Origin: an uncultured Planctomycetales bacterium
GTDB lineage: Bacteria; Omnitrophota; Gorgyraeia; Zapsychrales; JAHFFX01
Direction of reading: 5' to 3'
Length of the DNA: 60,734 nt
Assembly: GCA_964464475.1 (NCBI GenBank)
Contig: CAYXGG010000004.1
Span: 70,940 to 131,673, forward strand
Position 1 is the stretch's first letter. Each line of letters begins with the position of its first letter. This document shows, in pieces, positions 3,857 to 54,890 of the stretch. The notes beneath the pieces are model-generated. The model saw only the letters and a program-made list of their open reading frames with translations, made no database searches and was not told where the DNA came from. The translations under genes were made by a program, and so were the position numbers.

Positions 3857-4019
3857 CTTTTTCCCTTCTAATGTTAATTAAGGAAGGCGGGATAACGACC
3901 TTTTCTTCTTGGAGAAAAGGCAGTACCTGCCTCGCCGGTCCGCCTCGGCTCGCCATCAGCGAGACGGGCAGGCGGGTTGACTTCCTCTTAAGCATTGGAA
4001 TAGAAAAGGTCAATAAATT
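3857..4019 (+). repeat. modular intergenic repeat, copy A (hairpin module + 52-nt GC core 3925..3976 + AT-rich R module ending aaaaggtcaataaatt)
   Basis: The reverse complement of the core is identical (52/52) to 49270..49321 and 54753..54804. The flanks align with copy E (28032..28146). Confidence 0.85.
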
Positions 4020-4046
4020 AAACTAAAAACAAAAACCTATCCCAAA

Positions 4047-5984
4047 TTAAAATTCGAGGCTAAAGCCCCCTTCAAAATACCGACGGGGTAGAGGAAAATC
4101 AATATTGGACCAGTACTTGCTATTGGTGAGATTATGAATGCTGAAGAAAATTTTTCCATCCACATTGGCCCAAAAATCAACAAAGGCTTGTGATAGCTTA
4201 AAATCCCAAATGGGCTTGCGATCATTGGCCCTTAACGACGGCTCCGAACTCCAGCGGTTATATTGACCCAAAAGCTCGGCACTAAAACCCGTCACGCTAT
4301 GAAAATGCGCAGCTAACGAATATTTCTGCCGGGCGATTCCTTGATCACGCACGGAGCGACCTGTTTGCCGATTTTCCACATCATTAAATGCGCCGCTGGC
4401 CGAAAAAGACAGGGTCTCGGACCAATCGTAATCGAACGTCAACTCCGCTCCCTGCCGACGAAACTTACTAAAGTTTCTTTGTACATAGTAATTGGTAATA
4501 GGATCCTGGACCAACGCGATCGCGTCCCGGACATCTGACAAATAAAAATTAAGGTCCATGTTAAAATCATCCCCAAAAACGGTACTTCCCCCTAACTCGT
4601 ATACAGTGGCGCGCTCTGCTTCTAAATCGGGATTGGCCCCCACTTGAAATCCCGGATCAAAGTTATAAATCCACATCAAAGGTGGCGCGTTAAACACCCG
4701 GGAAATTTTTCCTCTGACCGAAGTCTCCGGCAGCTGGGCAAAACGATAGACCGACGCGAAACTAGGACTGGTTTGACTTCCGAATTGATCATTGCGGTCA
4801 TAACGAATGCCTGGGACAAATTCCCAGCCATTAACTTCTAACGAATAGTTCGCGAAAGGCGCCTGGGCGCTAATACCTTTGGCTTCAGACAAATAGCGAT
4901 TGGACTTGATCGTATGCCAATCAAAATCAGCGCCCATTACCAAAGCTCCAAAATCCGCAAAATCCTTATGACCATTAAGACTGATCCCTCGATAAAAATT
5001 ATTACTGATGGTCTCGAATTGCGACGCATTCGTTGAGACTGACTTTGTGTCGGTCGTAATATCTTGATGGTTAAACTTTAAAGCCACACTAAGAACATCG
5101 TCCCCATCCTCTCTGGAAAGGATCACTTGCCCGTAGCGCGCGTAATAAGGTTGAGTGGAATAATTGCTTGCCGTCTTTAACCCGTACTGAGCGAACGCGT
5201 CGTGATATCCGAACGTGCTTTGGATAATTCCCAAATCGCCTATAGGCAGGGACAATTTAGTCAACACACTCTTTTTTTCAGCCTCGCCAAATCGCTGAGG
5301 TCCATCGGTTTTATAATAACTTCCACTGGCGAAATAGCCCAATTCCTTAACTGATCCGGCTAGCGACAAACTCTCTTGAAACGTACCGAATTCCGCGAAC
5401 GAGCTGTTAAATTGACCGCTGACACGTTCCCCACCAGCGCTTTTGGTAATCACATTGACCACCCCGCCTAAACTAGAACCCCACGCGCTGGAAGCGCCGC
5501 CCTTAATGATCTCCACGCGTTCAATCATTTCCACAGGTATGGCGGAAGGATTAGCCTGCCCCGACAGTTGGGTATTGAAAGGAATGCCGTCAATCAACAG
5601 CAAAACTTGACGCGCATTGGAACCATTGAGAGATAACGCGGTCGATTGGCCGAATTGTCCATTCAATTGCACATCGATCGCGGGAGAATACGACAATACT
5701 TCGGTCAAATCCCGTGCCGGCAGTCGCTCAATGTCTTCGGCGGTAATTATCTCAACTTGTTCTGGACTATGTCGGGATTTACTTGGAGCACGGCGGGCCG
5801 TCACCACGACCGTATTTAATTCGTACAAAAATTTTGGCTTAATTTCAGCACTCTTAGAGGAAGGGGAAAAAGATGGTGAAGAACTGCTTAGGACAGCACT
5901 GTTTGCGTGTACTTGCCTACCCTGCAGAAAAACTTGTAAGACCATAATGACCCAAAAAATTCTTAATGCCTGACGAAACCTCAT
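4047..5984 (-). CDS. TonB-dependent outer-membrane receptor
   Basis: Signal peptide, then a plug region (VVVTARR...IERLPARDLTEVL...LNG...LIDGIP) and GGASSAWGSSLGGVVNVITK. It has a long beta-barrel and a C-terminal aromatic residue (..GGFSLEF). Confidence 0.9.
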   Translation of the reverse strand: MRFRQALRIFWVIMVLQVFLQGRQVHANSAVLSSSSPSFSPSSKSAEIKPKFLYELNTVVVTARRAPSKSRHSPEQVEIITAEDIERLPARDLTEVLSYSPAIDVQLNGQFGQSTALSLNGSNARQVLLLIDGIPFNTQLSGQANPSAIPVEMIERVEIIKGGASSAWGSSLGGVVNVITKSAGGERVSGQFNSSFAEFGTFQESLSLAGSVKELGYFASGSYYKTDGPQRFGEAEKKSVLTKLSLPIGDLGIIQSTFGYHDAFAQYGLKTASNYSTQPYYARYGQVILSREDGDDVLSVALKFNHQDITTDTKSVSTNASQFETISNNFYRGISLNGHKDFADFGALVMGADFDWHTIKSNRYLSEAKGISAQAPFANYSLEVNGWEFVPGIRYDRNDQFGSQTSPSFASVYRFAQLPETSVRGKISRVFNAPPLMWIYNFDPGFQVGANPDLEAERATVYELGGSTVFGDDFNMDLNFYLSDVRDAIALVQDPITNYYVQRNFSKFRRQGAELTFDYDWSETLSFSASGAFNDVENRQTGRSVRDQGIARQKYSLAAHFHSVTGFSAELLGQYNRWSSEPSLRANDRKPIWDFKLSQAFVDFWANVDGKIFFSIHNLTNSKYWSNIDFPLPRRYFEGGFSLEF

Positions 5985-6040
5985 AGCCAGCTAGATTTTT
6001 TCAAAGTCGATCATGATTTTATTAAAAATTGATAAATTAA

Positions 6041-6120
6041 TACCAAAATGAATGATTAAAGTGAACAAAGTAAATTTATTGTATACAATCGTAAATGATT
6101 GTAAACAAATGATTTATTAT
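6041..6120. promoter_or_regulatory. AT-rich region with repeated AATGAT(T) motifs 5' of the TonB receptor gene (possible Fur-type boxes)
   Basis: aaaatgaatgattaaa at 6045-6060, gtaaatgattgtaaacaaatgatttattat at 6091-6120. There is only a partial resemblance to GATAATGATAATCATTATC. Confidence 0.2.
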
Positions 6121-6124
6121 TTCA

Positions 6125-9121
6125 TTACCTTTTTAAGAATCCATTCTTCCGCCTTTTTTGCCACCAATATAGCAACATGAAAAACAGTAACCAGAAAGAA
6201 GGCTCCGGGACATTATATTCTTCTTCAAACTCCAATCCGGCTGAGGTTTTTATTCGTTGACGCTCTTTTTCTTTAAGAATTTTCCATTGCGAAGACCGTT
6301 CCAAAACAATAAAAGAGGTCGAGGGAATTAATACCGTAGCACTTTTACTGTCCGCAACCAATTGAGCAAGCTGCCGATCAATAGCGACCGGATTTAATAA
6401 AGCCATTTCATTACTCTGCCGCAACAATATTCCCCGATTATAAATTGAATCTTTAGAAACCTTAACGACTTCACCCATGGGAATAAATTTTTGAATATTT
6501 GAATCAAAAACCTCCCAGAGCGCCTCACTTCCGTCCTCCACAAAAGCCACTTGCCCCGCTGCCCCAGAGGCATCCACCTTTGATAGCAGGCCATTCTTTC
6601 TTAACACGATCCACGAACGGGCCATGCTCTTGGTCGCACTATTTGGATTTCTGCGTAGTTGCCCATCTCTTCCCAACACATAATAATTCTCGGCCTCAGG
6701 GTAAAAACCTCGTGACCAAATAGCTTTTTCGGATCTTAGAACTTTATCTTCCGCAGATGTAATAAATACAAAAATTGGCTCCGATAATACGCTACTGACA
6801 TTTTCCTTGTCCCACGCCATCTTGGCTTCAAAGACCAGCTGGCGAATGACCCGATCCAAATCCACCCCTCCCCGAGAATAAATTTTTCTTTGTGCGGCCG
6901 ACCATTGCTCCGCCAGTCTTTCAACCGGAATCATCGTTTCACTTATTGAAACGGTGTCTAAATTCGCTAACGTGACTCGACAATAACGTACGTCGGGAAA
7001 ATTCTGAACAGCGGCCTGCATCAACGCCAAATATTTCTTCTCATCCCAGGCCTTTGTGCCTAATGAATGATCCAAAATAAAATGAATATACGGAACTCGA
7101 TTGACTTGAGGTAGACGTTGGATCATCGGCGAGGGTAAAACAAGTGCGCTGGATTTTCCATCTGACAAAGATATCGGCTTTAACTGTTGAGTCTCACCAG
7201 TGGCTTCATTTAAAACGATCTCTTGCTCTTGCAATCTAACTTTAGGAAATATCCCCTTAGGATAAAGAAAATCAATCTGCACCACCCGCTCTTCCCCCGC
7301 TGCGAAAGGGAAGACATTTAAACTTAATTCACCAGGGGCGACGTATTTCAGTAACCCGGGATCTCGTCTAGTCCGGTCACGAATCATGTGATAGACCCAT
7401 TCCGCGGCCCGCCGCTCGAAGATTTGCCCCGGAACTATTTCCTCTCCAATCTTCAAACTAAAACCTGTAATGATCACTTCCTCAGGGACTATCAATGAAC
7501 CTTCAAACTCCGAGTTGATGACCCCGCTATTATTTTTAAGCACTAAGTTGAGTTGACTGCGATGCCAGGGACCTTCGACGCTTTCCCTCACGGACGTGCT
7601 AAGCACTGACACTTTTCTTTGTTCTTCTGTGGGTGGAGAATTAACACCTCTTTCACTCCACCACCGCCCCCGCATATCTTTATTCAATCCCCAAAAATGA
7701 TTCTGTTTTAACGGAGGAAGGTCTTCTCCGATAAAGAATTTGAATAAGTAATCAATTTTCTTATCAGGCAAAACCATGTTCTCAAAAACGATATGATTAT
7801 AAATTCCCGAAAGATAAGGTAACTGTAAACCGTATTTGAATTCTTTAAGATTGATGAGCGTCGCGCGTAACGCTTGCGGATTGCCTTGAAAGGAACGGTC
7901 TTTGCCGGCGAAATCAGGTGCATAAGCATAACGCAGGGCCTCTTTCAAATTAACCTTGGCATAAAACGCTTCTGCCACAAAATAAGTCGGAAATACCAGG
8001 ATTCCGGCTAATCCCAAAACAACCGTCCAGCGCAAACCGACCTGTCTTTGGGTTGCAAGAGCGTCCTGCCACCATCGTTGCGCGTGGATCATAAAAAGAA
8101 ATACCGGCACCAGAAAAAGAATGCCCGCACCTAATGCGAACATGGCCGGCAAAGCCAACGGTAAAAATGGCAAAAAAACTAAAAAGAAATAAAAGCTAAA
8201 CGGGAAAAAGATGCTGCGCGCCAAAAAAATCCACATACTATTTGAGAAACTTTTGTCCGTAGAAACGATCAACAATAATCCGTTAATAAGTGCTAAAACA
8301 TAAACCCACGGTGATTGAAAATCTGCCGGGAACGGGATTTGGCGATTCAGCATTAACCCACCGATGGGGCCGGCAATGCCTATAATCGCGTACAATAACG
8401 TTTGCCCCCAGCGGGCCCGAGCTTGCAGCGAATGATAAATCAAAACCAGCAAGCGGATCAACGCCATACAACTTAACAGAGTCAAGAGAACAAAGAATCC
8501 CGTGGCCACCAACGCCGGCCAACGAAAATTCCAGCGAGATATGAGGAAAAGCACGTAATAGGCTGCCGGTGCTAGCACCGCGATGCTGATGGTTCTGAAA
8601 TATTCGTCTTTGCGCGACCACCCCCAAGAAAAACAAGCTAATCGAACACCGCAATAGAAAATAGCGGGCATCATAAAAGTGAATTGCTGTAACGTCCAAT
8701 CTCCGGAATCTAAAATCCAGGGCTCAATGCTGCTGGGCAAAATACGAAATTGATGCGTCGCCCAAAACCACAAGTAGCCCACGCACCCCAACAACATCGC
8801 CGCGCACCATTTCCAAAACTGGCTACCTTGACCCCGATGTGCCTTCCCCCACGCAACAAAAGCTAAACCTAACAAAAACACTTCCCAACTCAAACTCATA
8901 AGAATCAACTGCCGAGCAGAAAACGAAAATAAATCAAAATAATTAACGTTACCTAACAAGTCCTTCGTGGCCGTCTCATCCCAAATGATCCCGTAGGCCC
9001 GCCCATTAATGAGGAGTAGGACCAATTGCGGCAACAGGCAGGTCCACCACCAACACGCAGGATGGTTGAAGATCGTCGGTAATAATGAATTAGGACTTTT
9101 CAAAGAAGATTGTTGTTCCAT
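6125..9121 (-). CDS. polytopic membrane protein with VIT-like domain and C-terminal PEP-CTERM sorting signal (exosortase substrate)
   Basis: The N-terminal ~400 aa are very hydrophobic with many TM helices. The central region resembles a VIT domain (ITGFSLKIGEEIVPGQIFERRAAEWVY...DPGLLKY..PGELSLNVFPFAAGEERVVQIDFLYP). The C-terminus NVPEPSFWLLFFMLLYWWQKRRKNGFLKR reads as PEP, then a TM helix, then a basic cluster. The ORF track starts at TTG 9157. The first ATG is 9121, which overlaps the exosortase stop by 32 nt. Confidence 0.75.
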   Translation of the reverse strand: MEQQSSLKSPNSLLPTIFNHPACWWWTCLLPQLVLLLINGRAYGIIWDETATKDLLGNVNYFDLFSFSARQLILMSLSWEVFLLGLAFVAWGKAHRGQGSQFWKWCAAMLLGCVGYLWFWATHQFRILPSSIEPWILDSGDWTLQQFTFMMPAIFYCGVRLACFSWGWSRKDEYFRTISIAVLAPAAYYVLFLISRWNFRWPALVATGFFVLLTLLSCMALIRLLVLIYHSLQARARWGQTLLYAIIGIAGPIGGLMLNRQIPFPADFQSPWVYVLALINGLLLIVSTDKSFSNSMWIFLARSIFFPFSFYFFLVFLPFLPLALPAMFALGAGILFLVPVFLFMIHAQRWWQDALATQRQVGLRWTVVLGLAGILVFPTYFVAEAFYAKVNLKEALRYAYAPDFAGKDRSFQGNPQALRATLINLKEFKYGLQLPYLSGIYNHIVFENMVLPDKKIDYLFKFFIGEDLPPLKQNHFWGLNKDMRGRWWSERGVNSPPTEEQRKVSVLSTSVRESVEGPWHRSQLNLVLKNNSGVINSEFEGSLIVPEEVIITGFSLKIGEEIVPGQIFERRAAEWVYHMIRDRTRRDPGLLKYVAPGELSLNVFPFAAGEERVVQIDFLYPKGIFPKVRLQEQEIVLNEATGETQQLKPISLSDGKSSALVLPSPMIQRLPQVNRVPYIHFILDHSLGTKAWDEKKYLALMQAAVQNFPDVRYCRVTLANLDTVSISETMIPVERLAEQWSAAQRKIYSRGGVDLDRVIRQLVFEAKMAWDKENVSSVLSEPIFVFITSAEDKVLRSEKAIWSRGFYPEAENYYVLGRDGQLRRNPNSATKSMARSWIVLRKNGLLSKVDASGAAGQVAFVEDGSEALWEVFDSNIQKFIPMGEVVKVSKDSIYNRGILLRQSNEMALLNPVAIDRQLAQLVADSKSATVLIPSTSFIVLERSSQWKILKEKERQRIKTSAGLEFEEEYNVPEPSFWLLFFMLLYWWQKRRKNGFLKR

Positions 9122-9641
9122 GGGGACGAAACCTTTCCAAAATGATTGAATAGCCAATAAGCAAACTTAAAAAAACACTGATTCCCACGCCTTGATGCAG
9201 AGCGCCCATATACAGGCTTGGCAAAACCGGCTTAAGCCAACTCTCGACATAAAATAAAGAAATGATCCTTAAACTATTAGCTAAAATTGTCAGCAAGTAA
9301 CCCATGCCTAATCCTAACAACAGGCGTCGCGGCATAAACCAAGAAAGTCGATCATAATCATAAAAAAGCCAGACACCCACTGTCAGGGCGAAGAAGTTTA
9401 TCCCTATACAGGCCGGCACAATCTGAATCAACCCCGCCCCCAAAGGTAGGACATAATAATTTTCCGCATTCATTCGTGGATCCACGCCAAAGAAAAAACC
9501 AACCAGGTGCGCGGTTGGACAAGCAAAAAAAGAATAGAAGATAGGTTCGAATTTGGAAAGAAAATGGGCGAGTCCGGCGCTCACCGCCAAAGCCACGACC
9601 GCCGGGCTCGCCCTTCCCACCTTTAATAAAACGGCCTTCAT
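9090..9641 (-). CDS. minimal exosortase-family transpeptidase (183 aa)
   Basis: Hydrophobic multi-TM protein carrying the exosortase/archaeosortase Cys-Arg-His signature in order: IQIVPACIGINFF, LTILANSLRIISLF, GALHQGVGISVF. Its ATG overlaps the upstream stop (ATGA). Confidence 0.7.
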   Translation of the reverse strand: MKAVLLKVGRASPAVVALAVSAGLAHFLSKFEPIFYSFFACPTAHLVGFFFGVDPRMNAENYYVLPLGAGLIQIVPACIGINFFALTVGVWLFYDYDRLSWFMPRRLLLGLGMGYLLTILANSLRIISLFYVESWLKPVLPSLYMGALHQGVGISVFLSLLIGYSIILERFRPHGTTIFFEKS

Positions 9642-27979: not shown

Positions 27980-28031
27980 GAGAGTCCTCCTTTTTAACTT
28001 TTTTTGAAAAAGAGGGCCGGCCTCGTTATTG

Positions 28032-28146
28032 GTCTTTTCCTTACTAATAAAAATAAGGAAGCCCAATATAACGACCTTTGTCTTCTAGAGAAAAGACCTC
28101 ATATTGACTTCCACTTTTCCTTTAGCAGTACAAAGGTCAATAAAAC
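28032..28146 (+). repeat. modular intergenic repeat, copy E (scaffold without the GC core), lying between the two arms of a terminator-like 10-bp inverted repeat
   Basis: It aligns with copy A on both sides of the point where A carries the 52-nt core (..gagaaaagacc|tcata|ttgacttcc..). It is flanked by gagggccggc (28012-28021) and gccggccctc (28050-28059). Confidence 0.75.
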
Positions 28147-28168
28147 GCAGCCGGCCCTCAACTCAACG

Positions 28169-28675
28169 TTATTCAACATTAGGGTCCCGCAATACTTTAG
28201 CAACACACTTATTTTCTTCACAGCGCGGGACATCGTATTCTAAGGGAGCCGCGCACTCCACGTAAGGTTGCATCAAGGCAAACACTTTATTATCAAAATA
28301 AATGTTCATTGGTTCCGGTCCACAAACGGCTTCCCGTAAAGCGCAATCACGATCCTGTAAACAAAAGCTAGCGTCCGACTGATATTTAAATTTTGATTCA
28401 ACCGGTTCACACCAGCGATAGCTAGAAAAACAACGCAGCATATTGGCGTTATATCCGGGAGGACAACCATAATTCTCAGTTAATCCCGAAATATCCCGCT
28501 GAAACCCTCCCTTTTCCATACGATCCACCGACGCCTCACAACAGCTTACCGATTGCTGGGTCTGACATTCATCTTGTAACGCTTGATAATATCGTTGCTG
28601 TAAAAAATTCTTTTCTTGCGCATAAACTGAATTACTAAACAAAAGAAAAAAACCTATGAATAGCACTAAACGCAT
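28169..28675 (-). CDS. secreted cysteine-rich protein (14 Cys), function unknown
   Basis: Signal peptide MRLVLFIGFFLLFSNSVYA. I recognise no domain. Confidence 0.45.
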   Translation of the reverse strand: MRLVLFIGFFLLFSNSVYAQEKNFLQQRYYQALQDECQTQQSVSCCEASVDRMEKGGFQRDISGLTENYGCPPGYNANMLRCFSSYRWCEPVESKFKYQSDASFCLQDRDCALREAVCGPEPMNIYFDNKVFALMQPYVECAAPLEYDVPRCEENKCVAKVLRDPNVE

Positions 28676-29714: not shown

Positions 29715-29759
29715 TTACTGGCCTTTTTTTACCGAAGATAGAAAGCAAAAGGCCAGTAA
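29715..29759. repeat. solo hairpin module of the repeat family (copy F)
   Basis: ttactggcctttt (29715-29727) and aaaaggccagtaa (29747-29759) form a 13-bp perfect inverted repeat. The arms share the tactggcctttt / aaaaggccagta motif with copies B, C and D. Confidence 0.6.
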
Positions 29760-36850: not shown

Positions 36851-37687
36851 TTAATTCATTCCTATCTTTCTTGACGAAAATTGCTGGATAAGGTTAGTCA
36901 CGGTCAATAGAATAAATGAAACGCCCAACATCACTATCGCAATGGCCGTCGCCCCCGCGTAATCAAACTGTTCAAGTTTAGTCATAATCAGCAAAGGAGC
37001 TATCTCCGTTTTGCCCGGCATATTGCCGGCTATAAAAATAACGGAACCATATTCCCCGACACCTCGGGCAAATGCTAACGTAAATCCCGTAATTAACGGT
37101 GGGACCAAATTAGGGAAAAGCACGCGGCTGAATGTTTGCCAGCGATTAGCCCCTAAACTCGCCGCGGCGTCTTCAAGTTCGGCATCCAACTCCTGCAAAA
37201 CAGGTTCTAGCGTTCGTACGACAAAAGGGAGCCCGATGAAAACCAGCGCGACCGTGACGCCAAACGGGCTATACGCCGACTGGATTCCCCAAGAATACAA
37301 ATATTTTCCAATCCAACCATTTTGAGAGTATAACGCGCTTAACGTAATCCCTGCGACTGCGGTGGGCAATGCAAAAGGCAAGTCCACAAAAGCATCAATG
37401 ATCTTCTTACCCGGAAAAGAGTACCTTACCAGCACCCAAGCCAGCAGAAATCCCACGAAAACATTAATAACACTGGCAATTAGGCTGGCAAAAAAAGTTA
37501 GCCGATAGGCCGCCAGAGAACGCGGGCTGGCCACCGCCTCCCAGAATTCTTTCAATCCCATTGTCGATGATTTAACTAACAACATCGACAATGGGATTAA
37601 GACAATTAAACTTAAATAAAATACGGTATATCCTAAAGATAATTTAAAACCCGGAAGATTATGCCGTTGTTTTTTGCGATTGATCAT
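36851..37687 (-). CDS. cysT: sulfate ABC transporter permease
   Basis: BPD-type permease (EDAAASLGANRWQTFSRVLFP), immediately 5' of cysW. Confidence 0.85.
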   Translation of the reverse strand: MINRKKQRHNLPGFKLSLGYTVFYLSLIVLIPLSMLLVKSSTMGLKEFWEAVASPRSLAAYRLTFFASLIASVINVFVGFLLAWVLVRYSFPGKKIIDAFVDLPFALPTAVAGITLSALYSQNGWIGKYLYSWGIQSAYSPFGVTVALVFIGLPFVVRTLEPVLQELDAELEDAAASLGANRWQTFSRVLFPNLVPPLITGFTLAFARGVGEYGSVIFIAGNMPGKTEIAPLLIMTKLEQFDYAGATAIAIVMLGVSFILLTVTNLIQQFSSRKIGMN

Positions 37688-43120: not shown

Positions 43121-46100
43121 CTATTCTCGCCAATCGCCACCCAACGCTTTAATAAGTTCAACAGTCGAAATAAGACTGCGGTTTAAAATGCGAACGGAAT
43201 CAAGTTCGGACTGCAGACGCGATCTTTCCGTATCCACGACATCCAGAAAATTAACCAGACCCTGGCGATAACGGGCATTGGAAATATCCGCCGATTGCCG
43301 CGCGGCGTCCATCACCTTTTGTTGAACCAGCCACTGCTCGCGCCCCAAACGGATGCGGGCCAGAGCGTTTTCTACTTCCGAAAAAGCCACTAAAATACGC
43401 TGTCGATATTGGGCCGTCGTTACTTCGTGTTCAGCGCGTGCGGCCTCCAGATTAGCGCGATTAGCGCCACCGTTAAAAACCGGAATAGTAATATTCGGCC
43501 CCAATGACCAGAATCGACTTTCCCAATTAGCGACATCGCGAAGTTCAACACTTTCTAATCCGGCGGCTCCGGTCAGTGTGATTTTCGGAAAGAAAGCCGC
43601 CTGAGCAGCCCCGATACGCGCGTTAGCTGCCGCCATCAGACGCTCGCTTTCAGCGATATCCGGACGTCGTTCCAGCAAAAACGCCGGTAGTCCCGGCGGA
43701 ATCACCGGAGGCACAATATCCAATGGCTTTACCTCAAGCGTAAAATCCGATGCTGGTTTTCCTAATAAAACCGCCAAAGCGTTTTCCGCTTCCGCTCGCT
43801 GACGGGCCACATCAATCTTGTCGGCTTCGGCTTTCGCCAATTCAGTTTGCACGCGCGAAACATCCAATTCACTGACAACCCCCGATTGATAACGATCCTC
43901 AACCAACGACAGCGCATTGCGACGCAAATCCAAAGCCTTATCAAAAATCTCCATCTCGGTCTCTAATTCACGCAAAATAAAATAATTCCTGGCTACGTCC
44001 GCGGTCACGGACAAAAGCACCGTTTGAAAAGCCGCCTCACTGGCCGATACTTCCGAGTTAGCAGCGGCAAACAAATGCTCCACTCTTCCCCAAACATCCA
44101 GCTCATAACTTAAATCAAAAGGCATTGAATATTTATCATGCGGATTATCCACGAAAAATCCCGAGGAAACATTTTGAGAGGTGTGTTCTCGAGTATACGA
44201 AGGTTTAGCGTCGACATGCGGAAAAAAATCCGCGCGGCTTAATCGCGCCAGGGCTCGAGATTTATTAAGGGAAGCAAACGCCACCTTCAAGTTTTGATTA
44301 TGCTCAATCGCCTGTTGCTGCAATTCATTTAATAACGGATCACGAAAAACCTTCCACCACTGCCCCCGCGGCACATCGTCGCGAGGCTCAGCCTGCTTCC
44401 AGTTGGGGTCCTCAACTTTCCAACCCGCGGGCATGGGCGCTTCCGGACGCTGATAGGGAACGCCCCTCGAGCAACCTGACGACAAAACCATCAGGACTAT
44501 CAGTACCGCCGCCTTCACTGGTTCGGCAATCAAAGGGCTAACCGGAACTTTGGGTTGATTTTTCTTACCGCTTAACAACACGTATACGACCGGAATAACG
44601 ACCAAGGTCAAAAATGTACTGGTGATCATACCCCCTACGGCCGCGACCCCCAAAGGCCGACGGCTTTCCGCCCCGGCGCCAAATCCAATCGCGATCGGCA
44701 AAATACCGGCAATCGTCGCTGTCGCCGTCATTAAAATGGGACGCAACCGAATCAATCCTGACGCCAACATCGCTTCCCGGGCGTCTTTGCCCTTAGCCAT
44801 TTGCTGATTGGCAAAATCAACCAGCAAAATACCATTTTTAGTAACCAGCCCAATGAGCAGAATCATTCCGATTTGACTAAACAAATTCAAACCCATCGCT
44901 GGAACGCCAAAATAATTCATCAGCCACAACGAAAAGAACGCGCCAAACGCCGCCAGCGGCACCGTCAGCATAACCGTCAACGGATGGACCAAACTTTCAA
45001 ATTGCGCGGCCAATACCATATAAATAACCAGCATAGACAACACCAAAACGAATAACGTTTCCTGACCAGATTCCAACAAGTCCTGAGCCTCACCGGTCCA
45101 TTCATACCGAAAATCTGCCGGCAATTCCTTCTTTAATAATTCCTCAACGTTCTTGACCGCGGTCCCGAGAGGAACCCCGATCGGCGTGCCTTCAATCGTC
45201 GCCGAACGGAAACGGTTAAAATGATTAATCGCGCTCGGCCCCGCACCAGTTTCATAACTGACGACATTGCTTAACTGAATCAGCTGACCTTGGTCATTGC
45301 GCACATATAGGCGATCCAAATCCGCCGGCGTTAAACGAGATTCCCGTCGCAGCTGCACAATCACGTCATATTCCTTACCCTGTAAATTCAGTTTGCTTAA
45401 ATCCAACCCACCAAACAAAATCTGCAACGTGTGCGAAATAGATTCGATGGAAACACCCAACGCCGCCGCGCGATTACGATCAATATAGACACGTAATTCG
45501 GGTTTATTTAATTCGAACGTAGAACGAACATTTGCGAGATACCCCGAAGTTCGTAACTTTCCACTGAACTCCGCGGCAAAACGGCTCAGCTCTTCCAAAT
45601 TCTGACTTTGCAAAACCAGTTGAAACGGCTGAGAAAAACCACCACCGATCGCTTTGGGAACAATGGGGATCACAATCGCCCCTTCGATGTTCATAAAAAA
45701 CTGCCCGGCCAGACCCGTAGGCCCGCCAATTATGTCACGAATATGACGATCTCGTTCCTCCTTAAGACGTATAAATGATAGCCCCTCCGCCGAGCGTCCG
45801 GGACCGCCACGCGAAAGCGCCACCGCAGAGAAATAACCCTCAACTTCCGGGACAGAAGCAATGATGCCTTCTGCTTTCTTAACCATGCGATCAGTGTATT
45901 CACTAGTGGAACCTTCCGGGGCGATAACAATGCAAAACAAACGTCCCTTGTCTTCATCGGGGAGAAACTCCCGACTCAATTTAGAGTAAAAAAATACTGA
46001 AGACGCGCAGATGACCAACGCGACAACAACAATAACCCAGGGAAACTTAAGCGCCCAGCGTAACACTTTTTCATACAGATTCGTCGTGGCGGTAAACGCG

Positions 46101-47617
46101 CGTTCAAAGATACCCACCAAACCTCGTTTGGTATCTACGTGAACCGGCTTCAACAATCGAGCCGAAATCATCGGCGTTAAGGTCAACGCAACAAAAGCAG
46201 AAATGAGGACTGAGAATGAAAGCGCCACGGCAAATTCAATAAACAACCGGCCGGTGACGCTGGTTTGGAACGCCATCGGCAAGAAGACCGCGACCAGCGC
46301 GATCGTCGTCGCGATAACAGCAAAACCGATTTCTTTCATGCCTTGGTACGCCGCGGCCAGAGGTTGCATGCCTTCTTCCACGTGACGATAAATATTTTCC
46401 AAAACAATAATGGCGTCATCAACAACCAGCCCAATAGCTAAGACAAAAGCCAGCATGGTCACGATGTTGACCGAATAACCAAAAATATAAAGCACGCCAA
46501 AAGTGGCAATGATCGACACGGGGATGGTGATGGAAGGAATAAACGTTGAACGGACATTATGCAAGAACACATAAATAGTGAGAATAACCAACACAAAAGC
46601 GATCCCCAGCGTTTCCCAGACTTCAAGAATGGATTTCTCGACGTAAATAGACTCGTCATAAGGAACCGCCATATTGACGCCAGCCGGCAATAATGGTTTA
46701 AGACGTTCCATTTCTTTCTTTATACCGTTGGCCACGTCAATCGTGTTGGCTTTGGACTGCTTTACAATCCCGATCCCCACGCACGGCTTGGAATTAAATC
46801 TGGCCACGGCACGTTCATCTTCAACACCGACCGCCGCGAACCCTACATCCCGCAACCGCACAAAATTATCCTTCTCTTGGCGGAGGACTAAATCATTGAA
46901 TTCTTCCGGGGTCTTCATTTCACCAAGGGTCTCAATAGAAAGTTCTCGTTGCAAACTTTCCACCCGACCGCTTGGCAGTTCGACATTTTGATTCGCCAGG
47001 GCTCGCTCGACATCCTGAACCGTCACGCCACGCGCCGCCATCTTCTCTGAATCAAGCCACAGACGGATGGCAAAACGTTTGGCCCCGCCAAAAATGACTG
47101 AGCTCACTCCCGGAACAGTTTGCAATCGGTCTTTAAGGGTATTCTCGGCGAGTGTTGTTAACTCGAGGGTGGAATATTGATCGCTAAATAAGGCGATCCA
47201 CAGCGCGGGCTGCGCGTCGGCGTCCTGCTTGGCCACGATGGGTTCATCAATATTTTCAGGCAAGCGACCGCGCACACGCGCCACGCGATCTCGCACGTCC
47301 TGCGCCGCCAAATCAACACTGCGGGACAAATCAAACTCAATCGTAATCGAACTGACTTGTTCGCGACTCTCGCTGGTGAGTTGTTTGATGCCTTCAATCG
47401 AGTTGAGCGTCTCTTCTAGGGGTTCGGTGATTTGGGTCTCAATGACGGCGGCACTGGCCCCCGCGTAAACGGTAGTCACGTTCACAATCGGCGGATCCAC
47501 GTCGGGTAGTTCGCGTACTGGCAAACGGCTGATCCCGATGATCCCAAACAATACCAGCCCCAAACTCATCATCATCGCTAGGACCGGCCGTTGAATACTT
47601 AATTCTGAAAGCTTCAT
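43121..47617 (-). CDS. RND efflux permease fused in frame to an OprM/NodT-type outer-membrane factor (1498 aa)
   Basis: Residues 1 to about 1030 form a complete RND permease (MKLSELSIQRPVLAMMMSLGL..., GLVVDDAIIVLENI, ends ..VVIPVVYVLLSGKK). With no stop codon it continues into VKAAVLIVLMVLSSGCSRG, a lipoprotein signal with lipobox. A full two-repeat OMF of about 450 aa follows. An in-frame GTG at 44518 could start the OMF part separately. The Cys codon is at 44471-44473. Confidence 0.85.
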   Translation of the reverse strand: MKLSELSIQRPVLAMMMSLGLVLFGIIGISRLPVRELPDVDPPIVNVTTVYAGASAAVIETQITEPLEETLNSIEGIKQLTSESREQVSSITIEFDLSRSVDLAAQDVRDRVARVRGRLPENIDEPIVAKQDADAQPALWIALFSDQYSTLELTTLAENTLKDRLQTVPGVSSVIFGGAKRFAIRLWLDSEKMAARGVTVQDVERALANQNVELPSGRVESLQRELSIETLGEMKTPEEFNDLVLRQEKDNFVRLRDVGFAAVGVEDERAVARFNSKPCVGIGIVKQSKANTIDVANGIKKEMERLKPLLPAGVNMAVPYDESIYVEKSILEVWETLGIAFVLVILTIYVFLHNVRSTFIPSITIPVSIIATFGVLYIFGYSVNIVTMLAFVLAIGLVVDDAIIVLENIYRHVEEGMQPLAAAYQGMKEIGFAVIATTIALVAVFLPMAFQTSVTGRLFIEFAVALSFSVLISAFVALTLTPMISARLLKPVHVDTKRGLVGIFERAFTATTNLYEKVLRWALKFPWVIVVVALVICASSVFFYSKLSREFLPDEDKGRLFCIVIAPEGSTSEYTDRMVKKAEGIIASVPEVEGYFSAVALSRGGPGRSAEGLSFIRLKEERDRHIRDIIGGPTGLAGQFFMNIEGAIVIPIVPKAIGGGFSQPFQLVLQSQNLEELSRFAAEFSGKLRTSGYLANVRSTFELNKPELRVYIDRNRAAALGVSIESISHTLQILFGGLDLSKLNLQGKEYDVIVQLRRESRLTPADLDRLYVRNDQGQLIQLSNVVSYETGAGPSAINHFNRFRSATIEGTPIGVPLGTAVKNVEELLKKELPADFRYEWTGEAQDLLESGQETLFVLVLSMLVIYMVLAAQFESLVHPLTVMLTVPLAAFGAFFSLWLMNYFGVPAMGLNLFSQIGMILLIGLVTKNGILLVDFANQQMAKGKDAREAMLASGLIRLRPILMTATATIAGILPIAIGFGAGAESRRPLGVAAVGGMITSTFLTLVVIPVVYVLLSGKKNQPKVPVSPLIAEPVKAAVLIVLMVLSSGCSRGVPYQRPEAPMPAGWKVEDPNWKQAEPRDDVPRGQWWKVFRDPLLNELQQQAIEHNQNLKVAFASLNKSRALARLSRADFFPHVDAKPSYTREHTSQNVSSGFFVDNPHDKYSMPFDLSYELDVWGRVEHLFAAANSEVSASEAAFQTVLLSVTADVARNYFILRELETEMEIFDKALDLRRNALSLVEDRYQSGVVSELDVSRVQTELAKAEADKIDVARQRAEAENALAVLLGKPASDFTLEVKPLDIVPPVIPPGLPAFLLERRPDIAESERLMAAANARIGAAQAAFFPKITLTGAAGLESVELRDVANWESRFWSLGPNITIPVFNGGANRANLEAARAEHEVTTAQYRQRILVAFSEVENALARIRLGREQWLVQQKVMDAARQSADISNARYRQGLVNFLDVVDTERSRLQSELDSVRILNRSLISTVELIKALGGDWRE

Positions 47618-48781: not shown

Positions 48782-49222
48782 TTAAACCAAGTTAGCTACC
48801 ACCTGCCGCAAAACTTGCTTACATATCTCTAAATTTTTCTTAGCAATGCTGCGCTGAGACTCCAACAAAGTTTTTTGGACCAGGGCCAATAACGCCTGCT
48901 GTAAATCTTTGCCTTTATTCGTCAAATAAATCAATTTCTGACGGCCATCCGCGAGATCGGGCGTTCGAACGACCAAATTGCGTTTTTCCAACCCATCTAA
49001 CAAACGAGTGATACTGGTTTTATCTTTGCACGTGCATCCGGCCAGTTCTTTCTGGCTCTGGCCATTTTTCTGCCAAAGATTCATGAGTATCGCCCATTGC
49101 TCGCAGGTAACATTATGGCCGGCCTTTTCAAAATTCTGATTAAGCCTGTGCGCCAACGTGCGCCCGGCCCGACCCACAACATAACCTAACGTCTCTTCTA
49201 AAGAATTGGATTGAACTTTCAT
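48782..49222 (-). CDS. MarR-family transcriptional regulator
   Basis: 146 aa with a winged HTH (QWAILMNLWQKNGQSQKELAGCTCKDKTSITRLLDGLEKRNLVVR..D..D.R). Confidence 0.9.
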   Translation of the reverse strand: MKVQSNSLEETLGYVVGRAGRTLAHRLNQNFEKAGHNVTCEQWAILMNLWQKNGQSQKELAGCTCKDKTSITRLLDGLEKRNLVVRTPDLADGRQKLIYLTNKGKDLQQALLALVQKTLLESQRSIAKKNLEICKQVLRQVVANLV

Positions 49223-49223
49223 G

Positions 49224-49362
49224 AATTTATTGACCTTTCTACTACTAATGATGCACTTATGGAAGTGACCCCGCCTGCCCGTCTCGCTGATGGCGAGCCG
49301 AGGCGGACCGGCGAGGCAGGTACTGGCTACCTTACAAGTATCGGAAGAGAAAAGGCCAGTAG
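49224..49362 (-). repeat. modular intergenic repeat, copy B (core 49270..49321), ending 1 nt before the marR ATG
   Basis: Minus strand: tactggcc..gccagta hairpin, then the 52-nt core, then the R module ...gaaaggtcaataaattcATG. Confidence 0.85.
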
Positions 49363-49451: not shown

Positions 49452-50597
49452 TTAGGGCGAAGAGGGCGAATCGCTCAAGAAATTCCGTTGTCCATAATAC
49501 AGAGCGGTTCCCACCGCAAGCCCGAGCAGATAGCCATGCGGGAGCGTCAACACGATGAGTGCGACCAGCAAAGAGATTGCGAAATATCGTCGCTGACCGG
49601 CCTGATCGCGAACAAATAACAGCAACGTTAACGCCTCAAAAAGCAAAATCACGCCTAAAACCGGCTTGGGGAAAAATTCCAGGATTTGCCCAAAAACAGA
49701 ACTAAAAAATAATCCGATCAGAACATAAATTGACCCATAAATAACAACTGACCCTCCCGTGCGAGCGCCCAGCGCGTAATGTCCAGCCAACCCCCCACAT
49801 CCATGGCAAAGCGGAACTCCTTGAAAAAAAGGAACAACAAGATTTAATAGCGCATAGGTTAAGCCTATTCGAGAAATAGAAATCTTTCTTTCGGGAAAGA
49901 AATCCTGAACGGTTCTTTGCGTGGCGATGACCGAATTGGAAATGGACAACGGTAATTGCGGTAGACTTAAGATAAAGAATCCCGTCACAATATCCGAAAA
50001 CTTAGGGACCTGAAATTGGGGTAACGCAAAGCCAACCCCTTCCCAGACGGTGGCCGCGTTCACTCTAAAAATTAACGCGTAAACAACTCCCAGCCCAATC
50101 ACCAAGGCTCCGGGAGGCAAGCGACGGTTACCTAGCAACATCACCATTAGTACGAAACACAGAAAAGCCAAAACAAAACCGCTGCCTCCTAAACTAGGCA
50201 CATACTCTTTGAGAGCCAAAGACGCCAGCGATAACCCCAAGCCAAATTGGATCCCGCGAACAACACAAACCGGAATCGCCCGCGCTAACCAATTTAAAGC
50301 GCCCGTCATGCTTAAAACCAGCATCACAAGCCCAATCGCCAGTCCTCCCCCAAAGAGCACGGGAGCGGCGATTCCCTGAGTGATGACCAAGACCGCCATG
50401 GCTTTTAAAGGCTGTACCGGCATGGGCAGCCCGTATACAAGGCCGGTTAAAATCTGCATCAAGCCAAACATAACCATGACGCTGGTGACGTCAAGTTTTG
50501 CGGCCAGAATCATGCCCACTAAAAGTGGGAAATCCGTTCCAATATCCCCAAAGCTACCGGAGAGTTCGTTACGATTAAATTGTACGCGCTGTTTCAT
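49452..50597 (-). CDS. MOT1-type (sulfate/molybdate transporter-like) membrane protein
   Basis: NELSGSFGDIGTDFPLLVGMILA near the N-terminus and about 10-12 TM helices. The start is taken at ATG 50597; the track begins at TTG 50621. Confidence 0.6.
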   Translation of the reverse strand: MKQRVQFNRNELSGSFGDIGTDFPLLVGMILAAKLDVTSVMVMFGLMQILTGLVYGLPMPVQPLKAMAVLVITQGIAAPVLFGGGLAIGLVMLVLSMTGALNWLARAIPVCVVRGIQFGLGLSLASLALKEYVPSLGGSGFVLAFLCFVLMVMLLGNRRLPPGALVIGLGVVYALIFRVNAATVWEGVGFALPQFQVPKFSDIVTGFFILSLPQLPLSISNSVIATQRTVQDFFPERKISISRIGLTYALLNLVVPFFQGVPLCHGCGGLAGHYALGARTGGSVVIYGSIYVLIGLFFSSVFGQILEFFPKPVLGVILLFEALTLLLFVRDQAGQRRYFAISLLVALIVLTLPHGYLLGLAVGTALYYGQRNFLSDSPSSP

Positions 50598-50704
50598 ATT
50601 CAGTTCTTCAATCAGGTTCAAAACTTCTGTATCTTAAAGAGTCTTCTGCCGACGTCAATAATTATTTGGCCAGAACAGAACAATGACCCTTCTAACCTAC
50701 GAGG

Positions 50705-50822
50705 TTACTGGCCTTTTCTTTTTTAATTCTTGGAGTGAAGCCAGCCCGTCTCACCGATGGCGAGCCGAGGCGGACCGAGTGGACTTCATTACTTCGATCT
50801 TTATTAGTAGAAAAGTCAATAG
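50705..50822 (+). repeat. modular intergenic repeat, copy D (flanks in the A orientation, shortened core 50744..50777 in the opposite orientation)
   Basis: ttactggcctttt..ttcttggag.. | gcccgtctcaccgatggcgagccgaggcggaccg | ..gacttc..attagtagaaaagtcaata. The core has 2 mismatches over 34 nt compared with copies B and C, read on the plus strand. Confidence 0.75.
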
Positions 50823-50905
50823 AAGGGTGCTGGGAATAACACTTAAAGTTATTTTAGCAATGCCGAATGAGGATTAATTTTGCCCGCCTATGCTACAATA
50901 CGGTC

Positions 50906-51428: not shown

Positions 51429-51483
51429 TAGGTGCCTGGATGAGGCCTCACCATGGGTACTCTCCTTCATCATTGGTTTAGCC

Positions 51484-51825: not shown

Positions 51826-51990
51826 AAAAAAACCACCGACTCTTTGGGAGAATCGGTGGTTTTGAAAAGCTAACTTAAAAATAATTAATTAACGAATCAA
51901 AACACACCGCCTCCGGCGCACATTCTCCAAATAGGGGAATGCGTAAGGCCGAAAAATACGTAGTGTTTACGATTCGTTAGTTGTTGCATA
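51826..51990 (-). ncRNA. candidate structured RNA of about 165 nt (sRNA or cis-regulatory leader), class not recognised
   Basis: Minus strand: TTGACT (52026-52021), 17 nt, TATTCT (52003-51998). A long closing stem follows (51979-51963 with 51905-51889; 9+6 bp around a small internal loop) enclosing about 57 nt with short hairpins. It ends in an intrinsic terminator (ccaccga/tcggtgg stem 51833-51859 plus T7 at 51832-51826). Confidence 0.3.
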
Positions 51991-52139
51991 GGGTCAAAGA
52001 ATAGCACTGCCTGGCATGAAAGTCAATGCGCGCGAATGTCTCCTGAAAGAATTACCGTAATCCAAACGACCAGCAACCTGTCCCGGTTGGTCAGGACAAT
52101 GAGCAGAGCGTTCAGGATCACAAGAACTCTTATGTACCG

Positions 52140-52796: not shown

Positions 52797-52827
52797 AAAT
52801 TTCTCCTTCGATCACCCTTGGTTATTC

Positions 52828-52889
52828 AAATACTTGCACTTTGCAAGTTGCGAATAGCCTAACAGAGCTACTTTCAATTTGCAAGTATT
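52828..52889. promoter_or_regulatory. operator-like repeats in the divergent GST / HxlR intergenic region
   Basis: ACTTGCA-ctt-TGCAAGT palindrome at 52832-52848. A third half-site TGCAAGTATT at 52880-52889 is the inverted match of AATACTTGCA at 52829-52838. Confidence 0.35.
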
Positions 52890-52913
52890 AATTCTTTAAG
52901 CTAGACTACCCAC

Positions 52914-53294
52914 ATGAAAAAAAACTCCACCTGCTCCAAAATCAAAAGTGACCTCCCCCGCTCGCCGTGTCCGATTACCAGCACCCTCGACATCATCGGC
53001 GATAAGTGGACCCTGATCATCGTCCGTGACATGCTGTTTCTAAACAAACGCTTCTTTAATGAATTTCTGGAATCGCCCGAAGGAATCGCGACCAACATCC
53101 TCACCGAACGGCTGAGTCGCCTGGAGGCCTATGGCCTCATTGTGAAGCAGCCCCTAACCCCCTCTTCCACCCGTCAAGCCTATGCCCTGACTACCCGCGG
53201 ACAAGATTTAAAGAAAATTTTGATCGAGCTAATCGCGTGGGGCAACACGCACATTGAAGGCACCGTTGTTCCAGGGAAGGAAAACAAAACCTGA
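52914..53294 (+). CDS. HxlR-family (MarR-like) transcriptional regulator
   Basis: CPITSTLDIIGDKWTLIIVRDML.....F.EF......I.TNILT.RL..LE..G. Confidence 0.9.
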   Translation: MKKNSTCSKIKSDLPRSPCPITSTLDIIGDKWTLIIVRDMLFLNKRFFNEFLESPEGIATNILTERLSRLEAYGLIVKQPLTPSSTRQAYALTTRGQDLKKILIELIAWGNTHIEGTVVPGKENKT

Positions 53295-53456
53295 AGACTT
53301 TTGAAAAAATTTCCATTAGACACATGCGCGTCCACGATGACGATAAAAGTAATTTTGTGCTGTAGGCAACCAACTCTTCGCGCCAGCGAGTATAAAATTC
53401 AATCTTCATTTTTATCACCTACTGAGTATTTCTTTCGCTTCCAGTAACAGAAAAAA

Positions 53457-53879
53457 TCATTTTTGATTCTCTCCTAATTTAAACCACGGAACAAAAAAGC
53501 TGGCGGAAGTAAACTTAACGACTTCCTGCGCTTTGACTTTCCCCAGGACAACATGGTAAGTCAAAATAGCCACTAATTGCTCTTTGTTTTCCGGTTTTAA
53601 CAAGTTCTCCGGCGTCCCGGCGGGGAGCTTCGCAAAAGCTTCATCAGTCGGAGCAAAGACCGTAAAAGGCCCTGCCCCTTTAGGCGTTTCCACCAATCCT
53701 GCCGCCTGTAGCGCAGTAGCCAGAGTTTTAAAATATCCTGTCTGGACCGCAGTGTCCACGATATCCTTTGGGGCCTCAACAGCAGATGACTTTTTATCAC
53801 TCATACCGGCATACGCGATGGCAGTACTTCCTCCCGCCAACGCAATGACACTGGCTAACACTAATAATTTGTCTTTCAT
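53457..53879 (-). pseudogene. fasciclin (FAS1) domain protein, C-terminally truncated
   Basis: Signal peptide, then [51 protein letters not shown]...[15 protein letters not shown]. The usual C-terminal third, with its NGV(I)H.ID motif, is missing. The ORF ends in unrelated residues [14 protein letters not shown]. Confidence 0.6.
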
Positions 53880-54191
53880 GACTTCCTCCCGTTTTGGTAT
53901 TTTCTGTTGTCCGCGAAATATTCGCTAAGATCTGAACTAATCATATCGGACAAACCCAAACGGTCAACCCAGACTGAAATCTTACAAATGACTGACAAAG
54001 ATATACATGACCAAATAAAACTCATCATCTCTACCTAGAATTAAAAACGTTCTTTAATTTAACGGTCGTTATGCGGACACCAACTAAAGGTGAGGAAAAT
54101 ATTTCTTAAAACAAACAAAAATTAACGCACCCATACGGCCCAAGAAAAAAAGACTTGCGACAAGCAACGACTATTAACGATGCCGCAAAAC

Positions 54192-54698
54192 CTATTTCTT
54201 CTTCGCTTTTTTAGCCGGGGCGGATTTCTTTTTAGTTTTTTTGGTGAGGCTGGAAGGTTTCTTTTCTTTGGTAACTGGAAGCGCGTCCTGAGCCACCGCC
54301 ATCGCAGTTACTGGAGCCACGGGCTGGACAGAAGGTTTGGGATTGACATTATTTTTAGGCTGACCGCTTGCCTTTCGACGCGCAAAACATTCCTTACAGT
54401 ACACCGGACGGTCCCCCGTAGGTTTAAAAGGCACCTCACAATCCTTTCGGCAGTCCGCGCACGTCGCACGAAACGTGGGCCGGCGCTGCGGATTTTCCGG
54501 TGGCCGAGCCTGGAGCGCAGGCCGAGGGGATGACGCTGGCACAACGGCCGGCTTTAAAGAAGCCGCCCTGACCTGAGCCAATTCATTTAAAGACTTCGTC
54601 ATAAACGTGTCTAATTTCTGATCCAGCATGGCCAACTGCTCTTGAATCTTGGCCATAAATCCAACGATGTCGATCTCAGCTGCCGCATTCTTTTTCAT
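54192..54698 (-). CDS. CxxC-x17-CxxC zinc-ribbon domain protein with Lys-rich tail
   Basis: CADC-RKDCEVPFKPTGDRPVY-CKEC has exactly 17 residues between the two CxxC pairs. The tail is KKTKKKSAPAKKAKKK. AGGAG lies 4 nt 5' of the ATG. Confidence 0.7.
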   Translation of the reverse strand: MKKNAAAEIDIVGFMAKIQEQLAMLDQKLDTFMTKSLNELAQVRAASLKPAVVPASSPRPALQARPPENPQRRPTFRATCADCRKDCEVPFKPTGDRPVYCKECFARRKASGQPKNNVNPKPSVQPVAPVTAMAVAQDALPVTKEKKPSSLTKKTKKKSAPAKKAKKK

Positions 54699-54708
54699 AA
54701 GACTCCTT

Positions 54709-54890
54709 ATTATTGACCTTTCTACTACTAATGATGCACTTAAGGAAGTGAACCCGCCTGCCCGTCTCGCTGATGGCGAGCCGAGGCGGACCGGCGAGGC
54801 AGGTACCGCCTTTTTCCCTAGATAGAAAAGTCCTGCCCAATGGGCAGGTACTGGCTACCTTATTGATTCTGGAAGGGAAAAGGCCAGTAA
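54709..54890 (-). repeat. modular intergenic repeat, copy C (core 54753..54804; extra 45-nt hairpin module 54807..54851), ending 13 nt before the ATG at 54698
   Basis: Same order as copy B plus a second hairpin module bounded by the 9-nt direct repeat ggcaggtac (54798-54806 and 54843-54851). Confidence 0.85.

Follow-up and report, generated by a model that had tools for sequence, protein, structure and literature searches.

The family described here consists of short, TA-flanked hairpin elements located at six loci (A–F) of a 60,734-nt window of environmental bacterial DNA (contig CAYXGG010000004.1, positions 70,940–131,673; "the window" is this whole stretch, and all coordinates below are its own). 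On balance, these elements most plausibly constitute a non-autonomous bacterial family of miniature inverted-repeat transposable elements (MITEs) of Candidatus Omnitrophota, with a TA-targeting DDE transposase probably mobilising them in trans. The elements are 43–179 nt long and non-coding. Intergenic DNA makes up 12.2% of the window, yet six of the six repeat loci are intergenic, and the elements account for approximately 10% of this intergenic DNA. An earlier note on this DNA had listed the six loci and proposed a composite element resembling a MITE or a repetitive extragenic palindrome (REP). Each of the six does contain members of the family, and this proposal is supported by the terminal inverted repeats, the terminal TAs, the many dispersed copies, the intergenic placement and a filled/empty polymorphism at locus D.

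The basic unit of the family is a hairpin of approximately 30–40 nt with the ends YTGRCCTTTTC...GAAAAGGYCAR and abutting TAs, giving elements with the terminal consensus TA-YTGRCCTTTTC...GAAAAGGYCAR-TA, in which the ends are inverted repeats. A cognate insertion sequence (IS) would be expected to have ends resembling TAYTGRCCTTTTC. A TA is present at 12 of 12 outer termini and at most internal module junctions, and the heads of the units read TA-YTGRCC, with no GTAG or GTGG head. The earlier note had recognised three modules, a hairpin H, a GC-rich core G and an AT-rich stretch R. Of these, H and R belong to one family of homologous units of approximately 40 nt according to both nhmmer and a repeat finder, in whose alignment the R units of A and E are 63–73% identical to the H units of B and C. 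An nhmmer profile built from ten units recovers ten sites in the window (E-values 2.5e-8 to 1.4e-4), a weak eleventh unit at 3856–3886 (E-value 0.02) and nothing further that is convincing. Units without the core have a G+C content of 27–40%.

Read in one orientation, with unit types designated L, S and R, the loci share a common grammar: A is TA[L']TA[S]TA[core][R]TA, B is TA[L]TA[core][R]TA, C is TA[L]TA[empty stem + S']TA[core][R]TA, D is TA[L][inner core][R]TA, E is TA[L]TA·TA[S]TA[R]TA and F is TA[L]TA. The two ends match at 14 of 18 ungapped positions in F and at 12–14 of 16–18 positions in the second element of E (E2) and in the S-to-R part of A. In A and E2 the outer ends can pair together over 9–10 bp, the sequence at both ends being CCTTTGT in E2 and CCTTTTCT in A, and this long-range pairing is visible in the folds of A (minus strand) and E. 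The DNA fold z-scores of F and E are -6.1 and -3.6 respectively.

An orthologous empty site with a single TA was found at locus D. In runs X4 and X5, which derive from a biofilter containing a strain approximately 95% identical to that of the window, a 194-nt contig matches window positions 50546–50707 and then continues into GAAGGGTATTGTGAATAACACCTAAAGTTA. These 30 letters place uniquely at 50822 onward with 26/30 identity when both window strands are scanned. The empty site reads ...CGAGGT-TA-GAAGGG..., and the window reads ...CGAGGT-TA-[CTGGCC...GTCAA-TA]-GAAGGG..., so that 114 bases are missing in the X4/X5 strain and one TA is present in place of the two in the window. The filled form of D is present in run X14 with 0 mismatches. 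No further empty sites were found: wherever other strains have coverage of A, B and F, which is thin, these loci are filled.

The sites occupied by D and E appear to have been palindromes before insertion, because removal of either element yields a strong hairpin. With D removed, the flanks form a perfect 13-bp palindrome, ACCCTTCTAACCT-ACG-AGGTTAGAAGGGT, with a fold z-score of -6.1. The element sits in the right arm of this palindrome (50686–50698 / 50702–50707 + 50822–50828), within the divergent region between the genes for an MFS_MOT1 transporter and a Zn-ribbon protein, and the split palindrome may be an operator or a terminator. It is improbable that a chance deletion would restore a perfect palindrome. 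With E removed, the flanks GAGGGCCGGC / GCCGGCCCTC (28012–28021 / 28150–28159) form a GC-rich inverted repeat of 10 bp without a mismatch, with a T-run after it on the minus strand, which is the gene strand. The result is a terminator-like hairpin (z-score -4.6). The gene at 28169–28675 appears to have had the loop of its terminator interrupted by the insertion of E.

The second component of the family is the 52-nt core G (CCCGCCTGCCCGTCTCGCTGATGGCGAGCCGAGGCGGACCGGCGAGGCAGGT). The core search finds it with 52/52 identity at 3925–3976 (minus strand), 49270–49321 (plus) and 54753–54804 (plus), in agreement with the earlier report of three exact copies, and 0 of 100 shuffles match it at 3 or fewer mismatches. 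A fourth, diverged copy is present in D (50740–50777), with 35 of 38 positions identical (92%). The core has a G+C content of 77%. As the earlier note had also stated, the core is better conserved than its flanks: it is 100% identical in A, B and C, and the flanking units are far less alike, with pairwise identities of 70–78% among R units (38/40 for the R units of B and C) and 58–83% among L/H units. In two runs no non-core letter reaches 2% of depth across all copies, and the core is likewise conserved in strains that are approximately 95% identical. The stretch common to all metagenome contexts is a 33-nt inner core, CCCGTCTCGCTGATGGCGAGCCGAGGCGGACCG, at 49278–49310. The blocks of identity vary with the pair compared (102 nt at 96% for B and C, 90 nt at 90% for A and C, 68 nt at 96% for A and B), which indicates that recombination or conversion among copies also shuffles modules.

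Folding of G as described in the earlier note is possible, but it is barely better than that of shuffled sequences (z-scores of -1.7 and -2.3 for G, and -0.9 and +0.4 for the inner core). With respect to the co-oriented genes the core is sense in A and antisense in B and C, and D lies in a divergent promoter region; the presence of the core in both gene orientations argues against a cis-regulatory RNA of fixed orientation. Rfam 15 gives 0 matches for the whole window at gathering score, and permissive Rfam scans of A, C and E return only hairpin-type noise (E-values of at least 0.2, far under gathering scores). A mobile structured RNA, the other option raised by the earlier note, is thus not supported, given the missing Rfam match, the weak folding and the two orientations relative to neighbouring genes. 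The occurrence of elements in both orientations without an Rfam match also led to the rejection of a riboswitch or leader in the 5' untranslated region (UTR). A CRISPR repeat was rejected for the 33-nt inner core, the copies being dispersed and the core-bearing contigs of 341–860 nt holding one copy each. Of the two possibilities left by the earlier note, recent spread and selection, the evidence favours recent spread or insertion of the core over selection on an RNA: family copies without the core exist, and D carries the core inverted.

The number of copies was estimated by placing Logan contigs of three runs from the sample of the window strain (X1–X3, freshwater) on the elements. Unique DNA in these runs has a depth of 3–6 and exact-core contigs (Logan unitigs) have depths of 41.5 and 42.5, which suggests that one genome equivalent carries 7–10 exact copies of the core. 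Overlapping variant contigs add up to a depth of 130–220, which sets an upper bound near 40 core copies, and the R and L units have depths of 25–55 and 10–25 respectively. Multiple dispersed copies are thus seen as six loci in 60 kb, as a core depth 7–40 times that of unique DNA and as many distinct flanks. Contigs have loose ends exactly at module borders (49226, 49361, 50744, 50777, 54710, 54744, 54764, 54793, 54812 and 54890), and some contexts carry R-like units with other loops. Copies without the core are present both in the window, as E2 and the empty stem of C, and in the metagenome, where one, found in 3/3 runs with the depth of a single copy, consists of R, GCCTGCC-C-GGCAGGC, TA and an L-like unit, and another of R joined directly to CAATA and an S unit. 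The inner core is also flanked by unrelated sequences in metagenome contigs. As a separate observation, the D variant of the inner core lies between unrelated sequences as GAATTTAAGTTTTGTCCCTGTGGCCCGGCT-core-TTAAGTAGGCTCAACGGCTCCGATGTTTGC in runs X1–X3 and X12, with the loose ends at 50744/50777. One frame of this arrangement is open over all 93 nt (EFKFCPCGPAPVSPMASRGGPLSRLNGSDVC), and the arrangement may be a copy that lies within a gene or may be where the core originated.

Element A occupies 3851–4015 on the plus strand (165 nt including both terminal TAs) and is a composite arranged as TA[L' 3853-3892]TA[short S hairpin 3895-3923]TA[core reverse complement 3925-3976][R 3977-4013]TA. Its start is at 3851 rather than at 3857 as first described, and it includes an additional unit at 3853–3892. 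The S-to-R part has the matching inverted ends TAACGACCTTTTCT / TATTGACCTTTTCT, and the minimal 33-nt inner core is at 3936–3968 (minus). Element B is a composite of 134 nt at 49228–49361 (minus) that reads on the plus strand as TA[R 49230-49269][core 49270-49321]TA[L 49323-49359]TA, the last T of the core opening the next TA, with the minimal 33-nt inner core on the plus strand. Element C is a composite of 179 nt at 54711–54889 (minus) that reads on the plus strand as TA[R 54713-54752][core 54753-54804]TA[S' 54806-54831][empty stem 54832-54848]TA[L 54851-54887]TA, with its minimal 33-nt inner core at 54761–54793 (plus). In addition to what had been described for C, a further short unit (S') is present together with an empty core stem, CCTGCCCAATGGGCAGG (54832–54848), consisting of the CCTGCC/GGCAGG stem around a 3–5-nt loop without the core. 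C differs from B by the 46-nt segment 54805–54850, which is bounded by the direct repeat GGCAGGTAC.

Element D, a composite at 50706–50821 (plus), is arranged as TA[L 50708-50744][inner core variant 50745-50777][AG][R 50780-50819]TA. It does carry the core, but in the form of an inner core that is inverted relative to the R unit and lies between inner arms of L and R that are able to pair (GAAGCCA / TGGACTTC). Locus E, initially described as one element, consists of two abutting coreless elements. The first, E1 (28027–28068, plus), is one L-type unit, TA[TTGGTC...GCCCAA]TA, in the orientation opposite to the R unit of the second. E2 (28069–28142, plus; 74 nt) is TA[S 28071-28101]TA[R 28104-28140]TA with the inverted ends TAACGACCTTTGT / TATTGACCTTTGT. 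E2 corresponds to A minus the core: the two align end to end, with 53 extra bases in A right after the internal TA. Element F (29716–29758, without an assigned strand) is a single palindromic unit of 43 nt, TA[CTGGCCTTTT...AAAAGGCCAG]TA, with a clean 13-bp stem. A GC-rich hairpin, TACTGGCCTTTTCGCGAGCATGCCCGCGAAAAGGCCAGTA, found in an unrelated high-GC organism (contigs L004, 553–592, and L005, 3075–3114) shares the 12-nt arms of F; it looks like a REP of a pseudomonad-like genome, and its likeness to F is probably a coincidence.

Under the MITE reading, single units such as F and two-unit elements such as E2 and D would insert at TA and duplicate it. Such insertion, with duplication of the TA, would be expected of a TA-targeting DDE transposase of the IS630/Tc1-mariner type, encoded outside the window and acting in trans; the IS630 family is TA-targeting. 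The TA next to a resident copy would also serve as a target, giving rise to the TA-delimited arrays of A, C and E. At least two of the targets would have been palindromic: E would have entered a terminator hairpin at its loop, and D one arm of a 13-bp palindrome. The core would be secondary, with the 33-nt inner core inserted in the loop of the small internal hairpin CCTGCC...GGCAGG. It looks like a later hairpin-loop insertion, because other copies have this hairpin empty and D carries the core inverted. The identical 52-nt G of A, B and C would then reflect either a recent insertion or a single R-G master segment that spread among the copies through recombination or gene conversion. A more tentative and rather doubtful proposal is that the inner core is itself an ultra-small mobile insertion that enters hairpin loops in either orientation without inverted repeats or coding capacity of its own. 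If self-moving, its landing sites would be mostly the CCTGCC/GGCAGG hairpin in resident MITEs, with others elsewhere. It would then be a parasite of a parasite, and its mechanism (hairpin-loop targeting, perhaps via single-stranded DNA) would be unlike that of any characterised transposase.

The placement of the elements suggests possible effects on adjacent genes. The end of B lies 5 nt upstream of the ATG of a MarR-family gene (49220–49222), and the only Shine-Dalgarno-like motif there, GAAAGG, is inside B. A promoter-like site is located just upstream of B (TTGACA-16-TATACT, 11/12, 49409–49382, minus strand). B is probably transcribed, because it lies between this site and the MarR start codon, and it is probably part of the 5' UTR of the MarR-family gene. 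In C the empty stem is followed by a T-run on the gene strand, which fits the terminator pattern. The elements may contribute hairpins, a terminator-like stem and, in B, a Shine-Dalgarno-like sequence to their neighbours. The family marks places of possible rewiring of expression, namely the MarR ribosome-binding region at B, the split palindrome at D and the terminator loop at E.

Several observations weigh against a MITE family. The empty site is a single case (n=1) that depends on a contig of 3x depth, and X4 and X5 are apparently one dataset deposited twice. The site fits duplication of a TA and can also be read as the insertion, without duplication, of an element containing one TA. The inverted ends are short and imperfect (9–14 of 18 ungapped positions), the interiors of the units are poorly palindromic, and no transposase is seen, with none in the window. 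A conserved interior between variable arms is the opposite of the usual MITE pattern, and the copy numbers are rough, being derived from summed overlapping Logan contigs of a sample that may hold several related strains. No related element is present in any collection searched, which leaves the family without comparative support. A rival explanation is a REP-type system, in which the units are recognised as single-stranded hairpins by a REP-associated tyrosine transposase (RAYT, related to IS200/IS605) encoded elsewhere and the composites are the equivalents of bacterial interspersed mosaic elements (BIMEs) or REP doublets (REPINs), with two inverted units around a spacer. The units are imperfect palindromes of 30–40 nt, B, C and D each have two homologous inverted units around a spacer, and A, C and E form alternating clusters. 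New copies lie beside or within old ones, as in REPIN clusters (PMC3116915), and insertion is in or near other hairpins. This explanation is nevertheless unlikely, since the GTAG/GTGG head is missing and the units are AT-rich, not GC-rich as in the published REP table (PMC2817692), and since a TA at both ends that occurs once in the empty site fits a staggered DDE cut, whereas IS200/IS605-type insertion proceeds without a larger target duplication (PMC2817692). An IS608-style reading with target TTAC and right end TCAA predicts GAGGTTAC-TAGAAGGG at the empty site of D, but the observed sequence is GAGGTTAGAAGGG, and IS608-type insertion was rejected because of this disagreement. There is also no Y1 transposase within the window, and the copy number falls short of the more than 100 per genome that REPs typically reach.

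Two further explanations are both quite improbable. In one, the element serves a host function: selection would maintain the invariant core either for the binding of a protein or as a structured RNA (a small RNA, or a module for processing, stability or termination), and the AT-rich hairpins would only carry it. The uniformity of the core in two runs (no variant at 2% of depth or more) contrasts with arms that differ by 20–40%, and its conservation in strains approximately 95% identical, its G+C content of 77% in a genome of 46%, the probable transcription of B from promoter-like site to MarR start and the terminator-like stem and T-run of C would all be consistent with such a role. A function of this kind is difficult to reconcile with a core that is sense in A, antisense in B and C and in a divergent promoter region in D, that folds with weak z-scores and lacks an Rfam match, and that is altered in D by two substitutions which break the CTCGC/GCGAG hairpin on the plus strand; coreless family copies also occupy the same kinds of site. 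In the other, the loci are a recombination mosaic of old, immobile palindromes that share blocks through gene conversion, and the polymorphism at D is a deletion, either between the flanking TAs or within the palindrome. Patchwise conversion would account for a high-identity stretch that differs with each pair of copies and for the direct repeat that bounds the 46-nt difference between B and C, and only a single polymorphic site was found. However, a precise deletion that restored both the 13-bp palindrome and a single TA is much less likely than an insertion, the core lies within unrelated flanks, and an identical core at an estimated 7–10 or more sites requires a spreading process. A TA-targeting MITE family remains the preferred explanation.

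The genes of the window are Gram-negative in type and include those for a TonB-dependent receptor, RND efflux systems, an MSEP-CTERM protein and a geopeptide-type radical SAM maturase. The MFS_MOT1 transporter gene sits between B and D; the closest homologues of its product are 70–72% identical, and those that are named belong to metagenome-assembled genomes (MAGs) of Candidatus Omnitrophota. A cyanobacterial origin was rejected, as HIP1 enrichment is absent. DNA of the window is present in freshwater, biofilter and drinking-water metagenomes but was found in no RNA-seq run, and the sole other assembly of the region is an ENA contig (L001) of the same strain (99.94%). The window has a G+C content of 46% and its genes are almost uniformly on the minus strand (approximately 50 of 56). 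The GC skew is negative in each 2-kb bin of 1–60734 (cumulative -4.7). Together, the strand bias and the uniformly negative skew suggest a single replichore with genes strongly co-oriented with replication. The earlier statement that the window contains no transposase holds for the listed open reading frames (ORFs) of at least 80 aa that do not lie inside a longer one: none of these has a transposase domain, and nine have no Pfam match at all. A Y1 transposase domain is absent from the window ORFs, no cognate autonomous IS with matching inverted repeats lies inside the window, and no relation of the elements to transfer-messenger RNA or tRNA was found.

Three other features of the window lie outside the repeat loci. 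At 43121–47617 (minus strand), one ORF of 1498 aa encodes a complete RND efflux permease (residues 4–1016) and a complete NodT-type outer-membrane factor (1041–1494) with no stop codon separating the two parts, and it is either a real fusion or the product of a lost stop codon. An inverted repeat of 25 nt with 88% complementarity and a 13-nt spacer is located at 37545–37607, within the N-terminal coding part of an ABC-transporter permease gene that lies immediately 3' of a solute-binding-protein gene. The left end of the window encodes the geopeptide-type radical SAM/SPASM maturase and a 1010-aa protein with an MSEP-CTERM sorting domain (343–1734 and 6125–9157).

Searches for relatives of the family outside its own strains were negative. 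The 33-nt core, with two degenerate positions, has 0 matches in 185,579 GTDB species genomes, and a 22-nt core has 0 in the JGI metagenomes and 0 in IMG/VR. The unit pattern TACTGGCCTTTT-N8-38-AAAAGGYCARTA gives only unrelated chance matches in the GTDB genomes and JGI metagenomes; those set aside were from Vibrio albus, a Prolixibacteraceae MAG and a GC-rich Pseudomonas-like REP hairpin. A blastn search of element C against plasmids and phages returns no match, and a chimeric protein query, assembled from translations of the open frames of C so as to catch spurious ORFs annotated over other copies, finds nothing at an E-value of 10 or less. The literature search found no MITE or small non-coding mobile element described in Omnitrophota, and a recent survey of complete Omnitrophota genomes mentions IS families but not MITEs. 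The kind of element is well known, and the family is new for uncultured freshwater Omnitrophota. Members of this phylum are known almost solely from metagenome-assembled genomes. A MITE family would be of use as a strain-level marker of their populations, because a site filled in one strain can be empty in another.

Among known systems, the family resembles the RUP, Correia/NEMIS and ERIC elements in being under 200 bp, non-coding and intergenic, with inverted ends, TA termini and TA duplication. Hairpin-forming transcripts, tens to hundreds of copies and filled/empty polymorphism between strains are further features of RUP, Correia and ERIC. Typical bacterial MITEs of this group are described as shorter than 200 bp, with terminal inverted repeats, 5'-TA-3' termini and a target duplication (Delihas 2008, PMC2229807), and RUP is ascribed to an IS630-family transposase (PMC2229807; PMC3049150). 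The present family differs from them in showing no sequence similarity in the searches above, in a much smaller basic unit (approximately 40 nt) that occurs alone or in arrays, in an internal GC-rich insert rather than the termini as its most conserved part, and in its Omnitrophota host. Its modularity recalls the BOX elements of Streptococcus pneumoniae (boxA-boxB(n)-boxC), which are also composites with variable combinations and numbers of modules and extensive predicted secondary structure. BOX elements are considered parasitic and able to affect co-transcribed genes (PMC3049150). Unlike those of BOX, the modules here are TA-bounded and mutually homologous hairpins, and the inner core is present in both orientations. 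With REPs, BIMEs and REPINs the family shares short imperfect palindromes that occur singly, as inverted doublets and in clusters, with new copies in or beside old ones (PMC2817692, PMC3116915). It departs from them in the lack of a GTAG/GTGG head, the AT-rich units, the indicated TA duplication and the lower copy number, and no RAYT was seen.

For the inner core alone, a parallel is offered by the small dispersed repeats (SDR) of heterocyst-forming cyanobacteria, which Elhai et al. (2008) are said to have described as tiny, near-identical repeats that lie in either orientation inside other repeats and the loops of inverted repeats. The phylum and the sequence are different. The inner core, which is invariant and occurs in either orientation, with a carrier or without one, provides a small but concrete case for how very short sequences enter hairpin loops. 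If it moves alone into such loops, its behaviour would be comparable to that of these unexplained cyanobacterial repeats.

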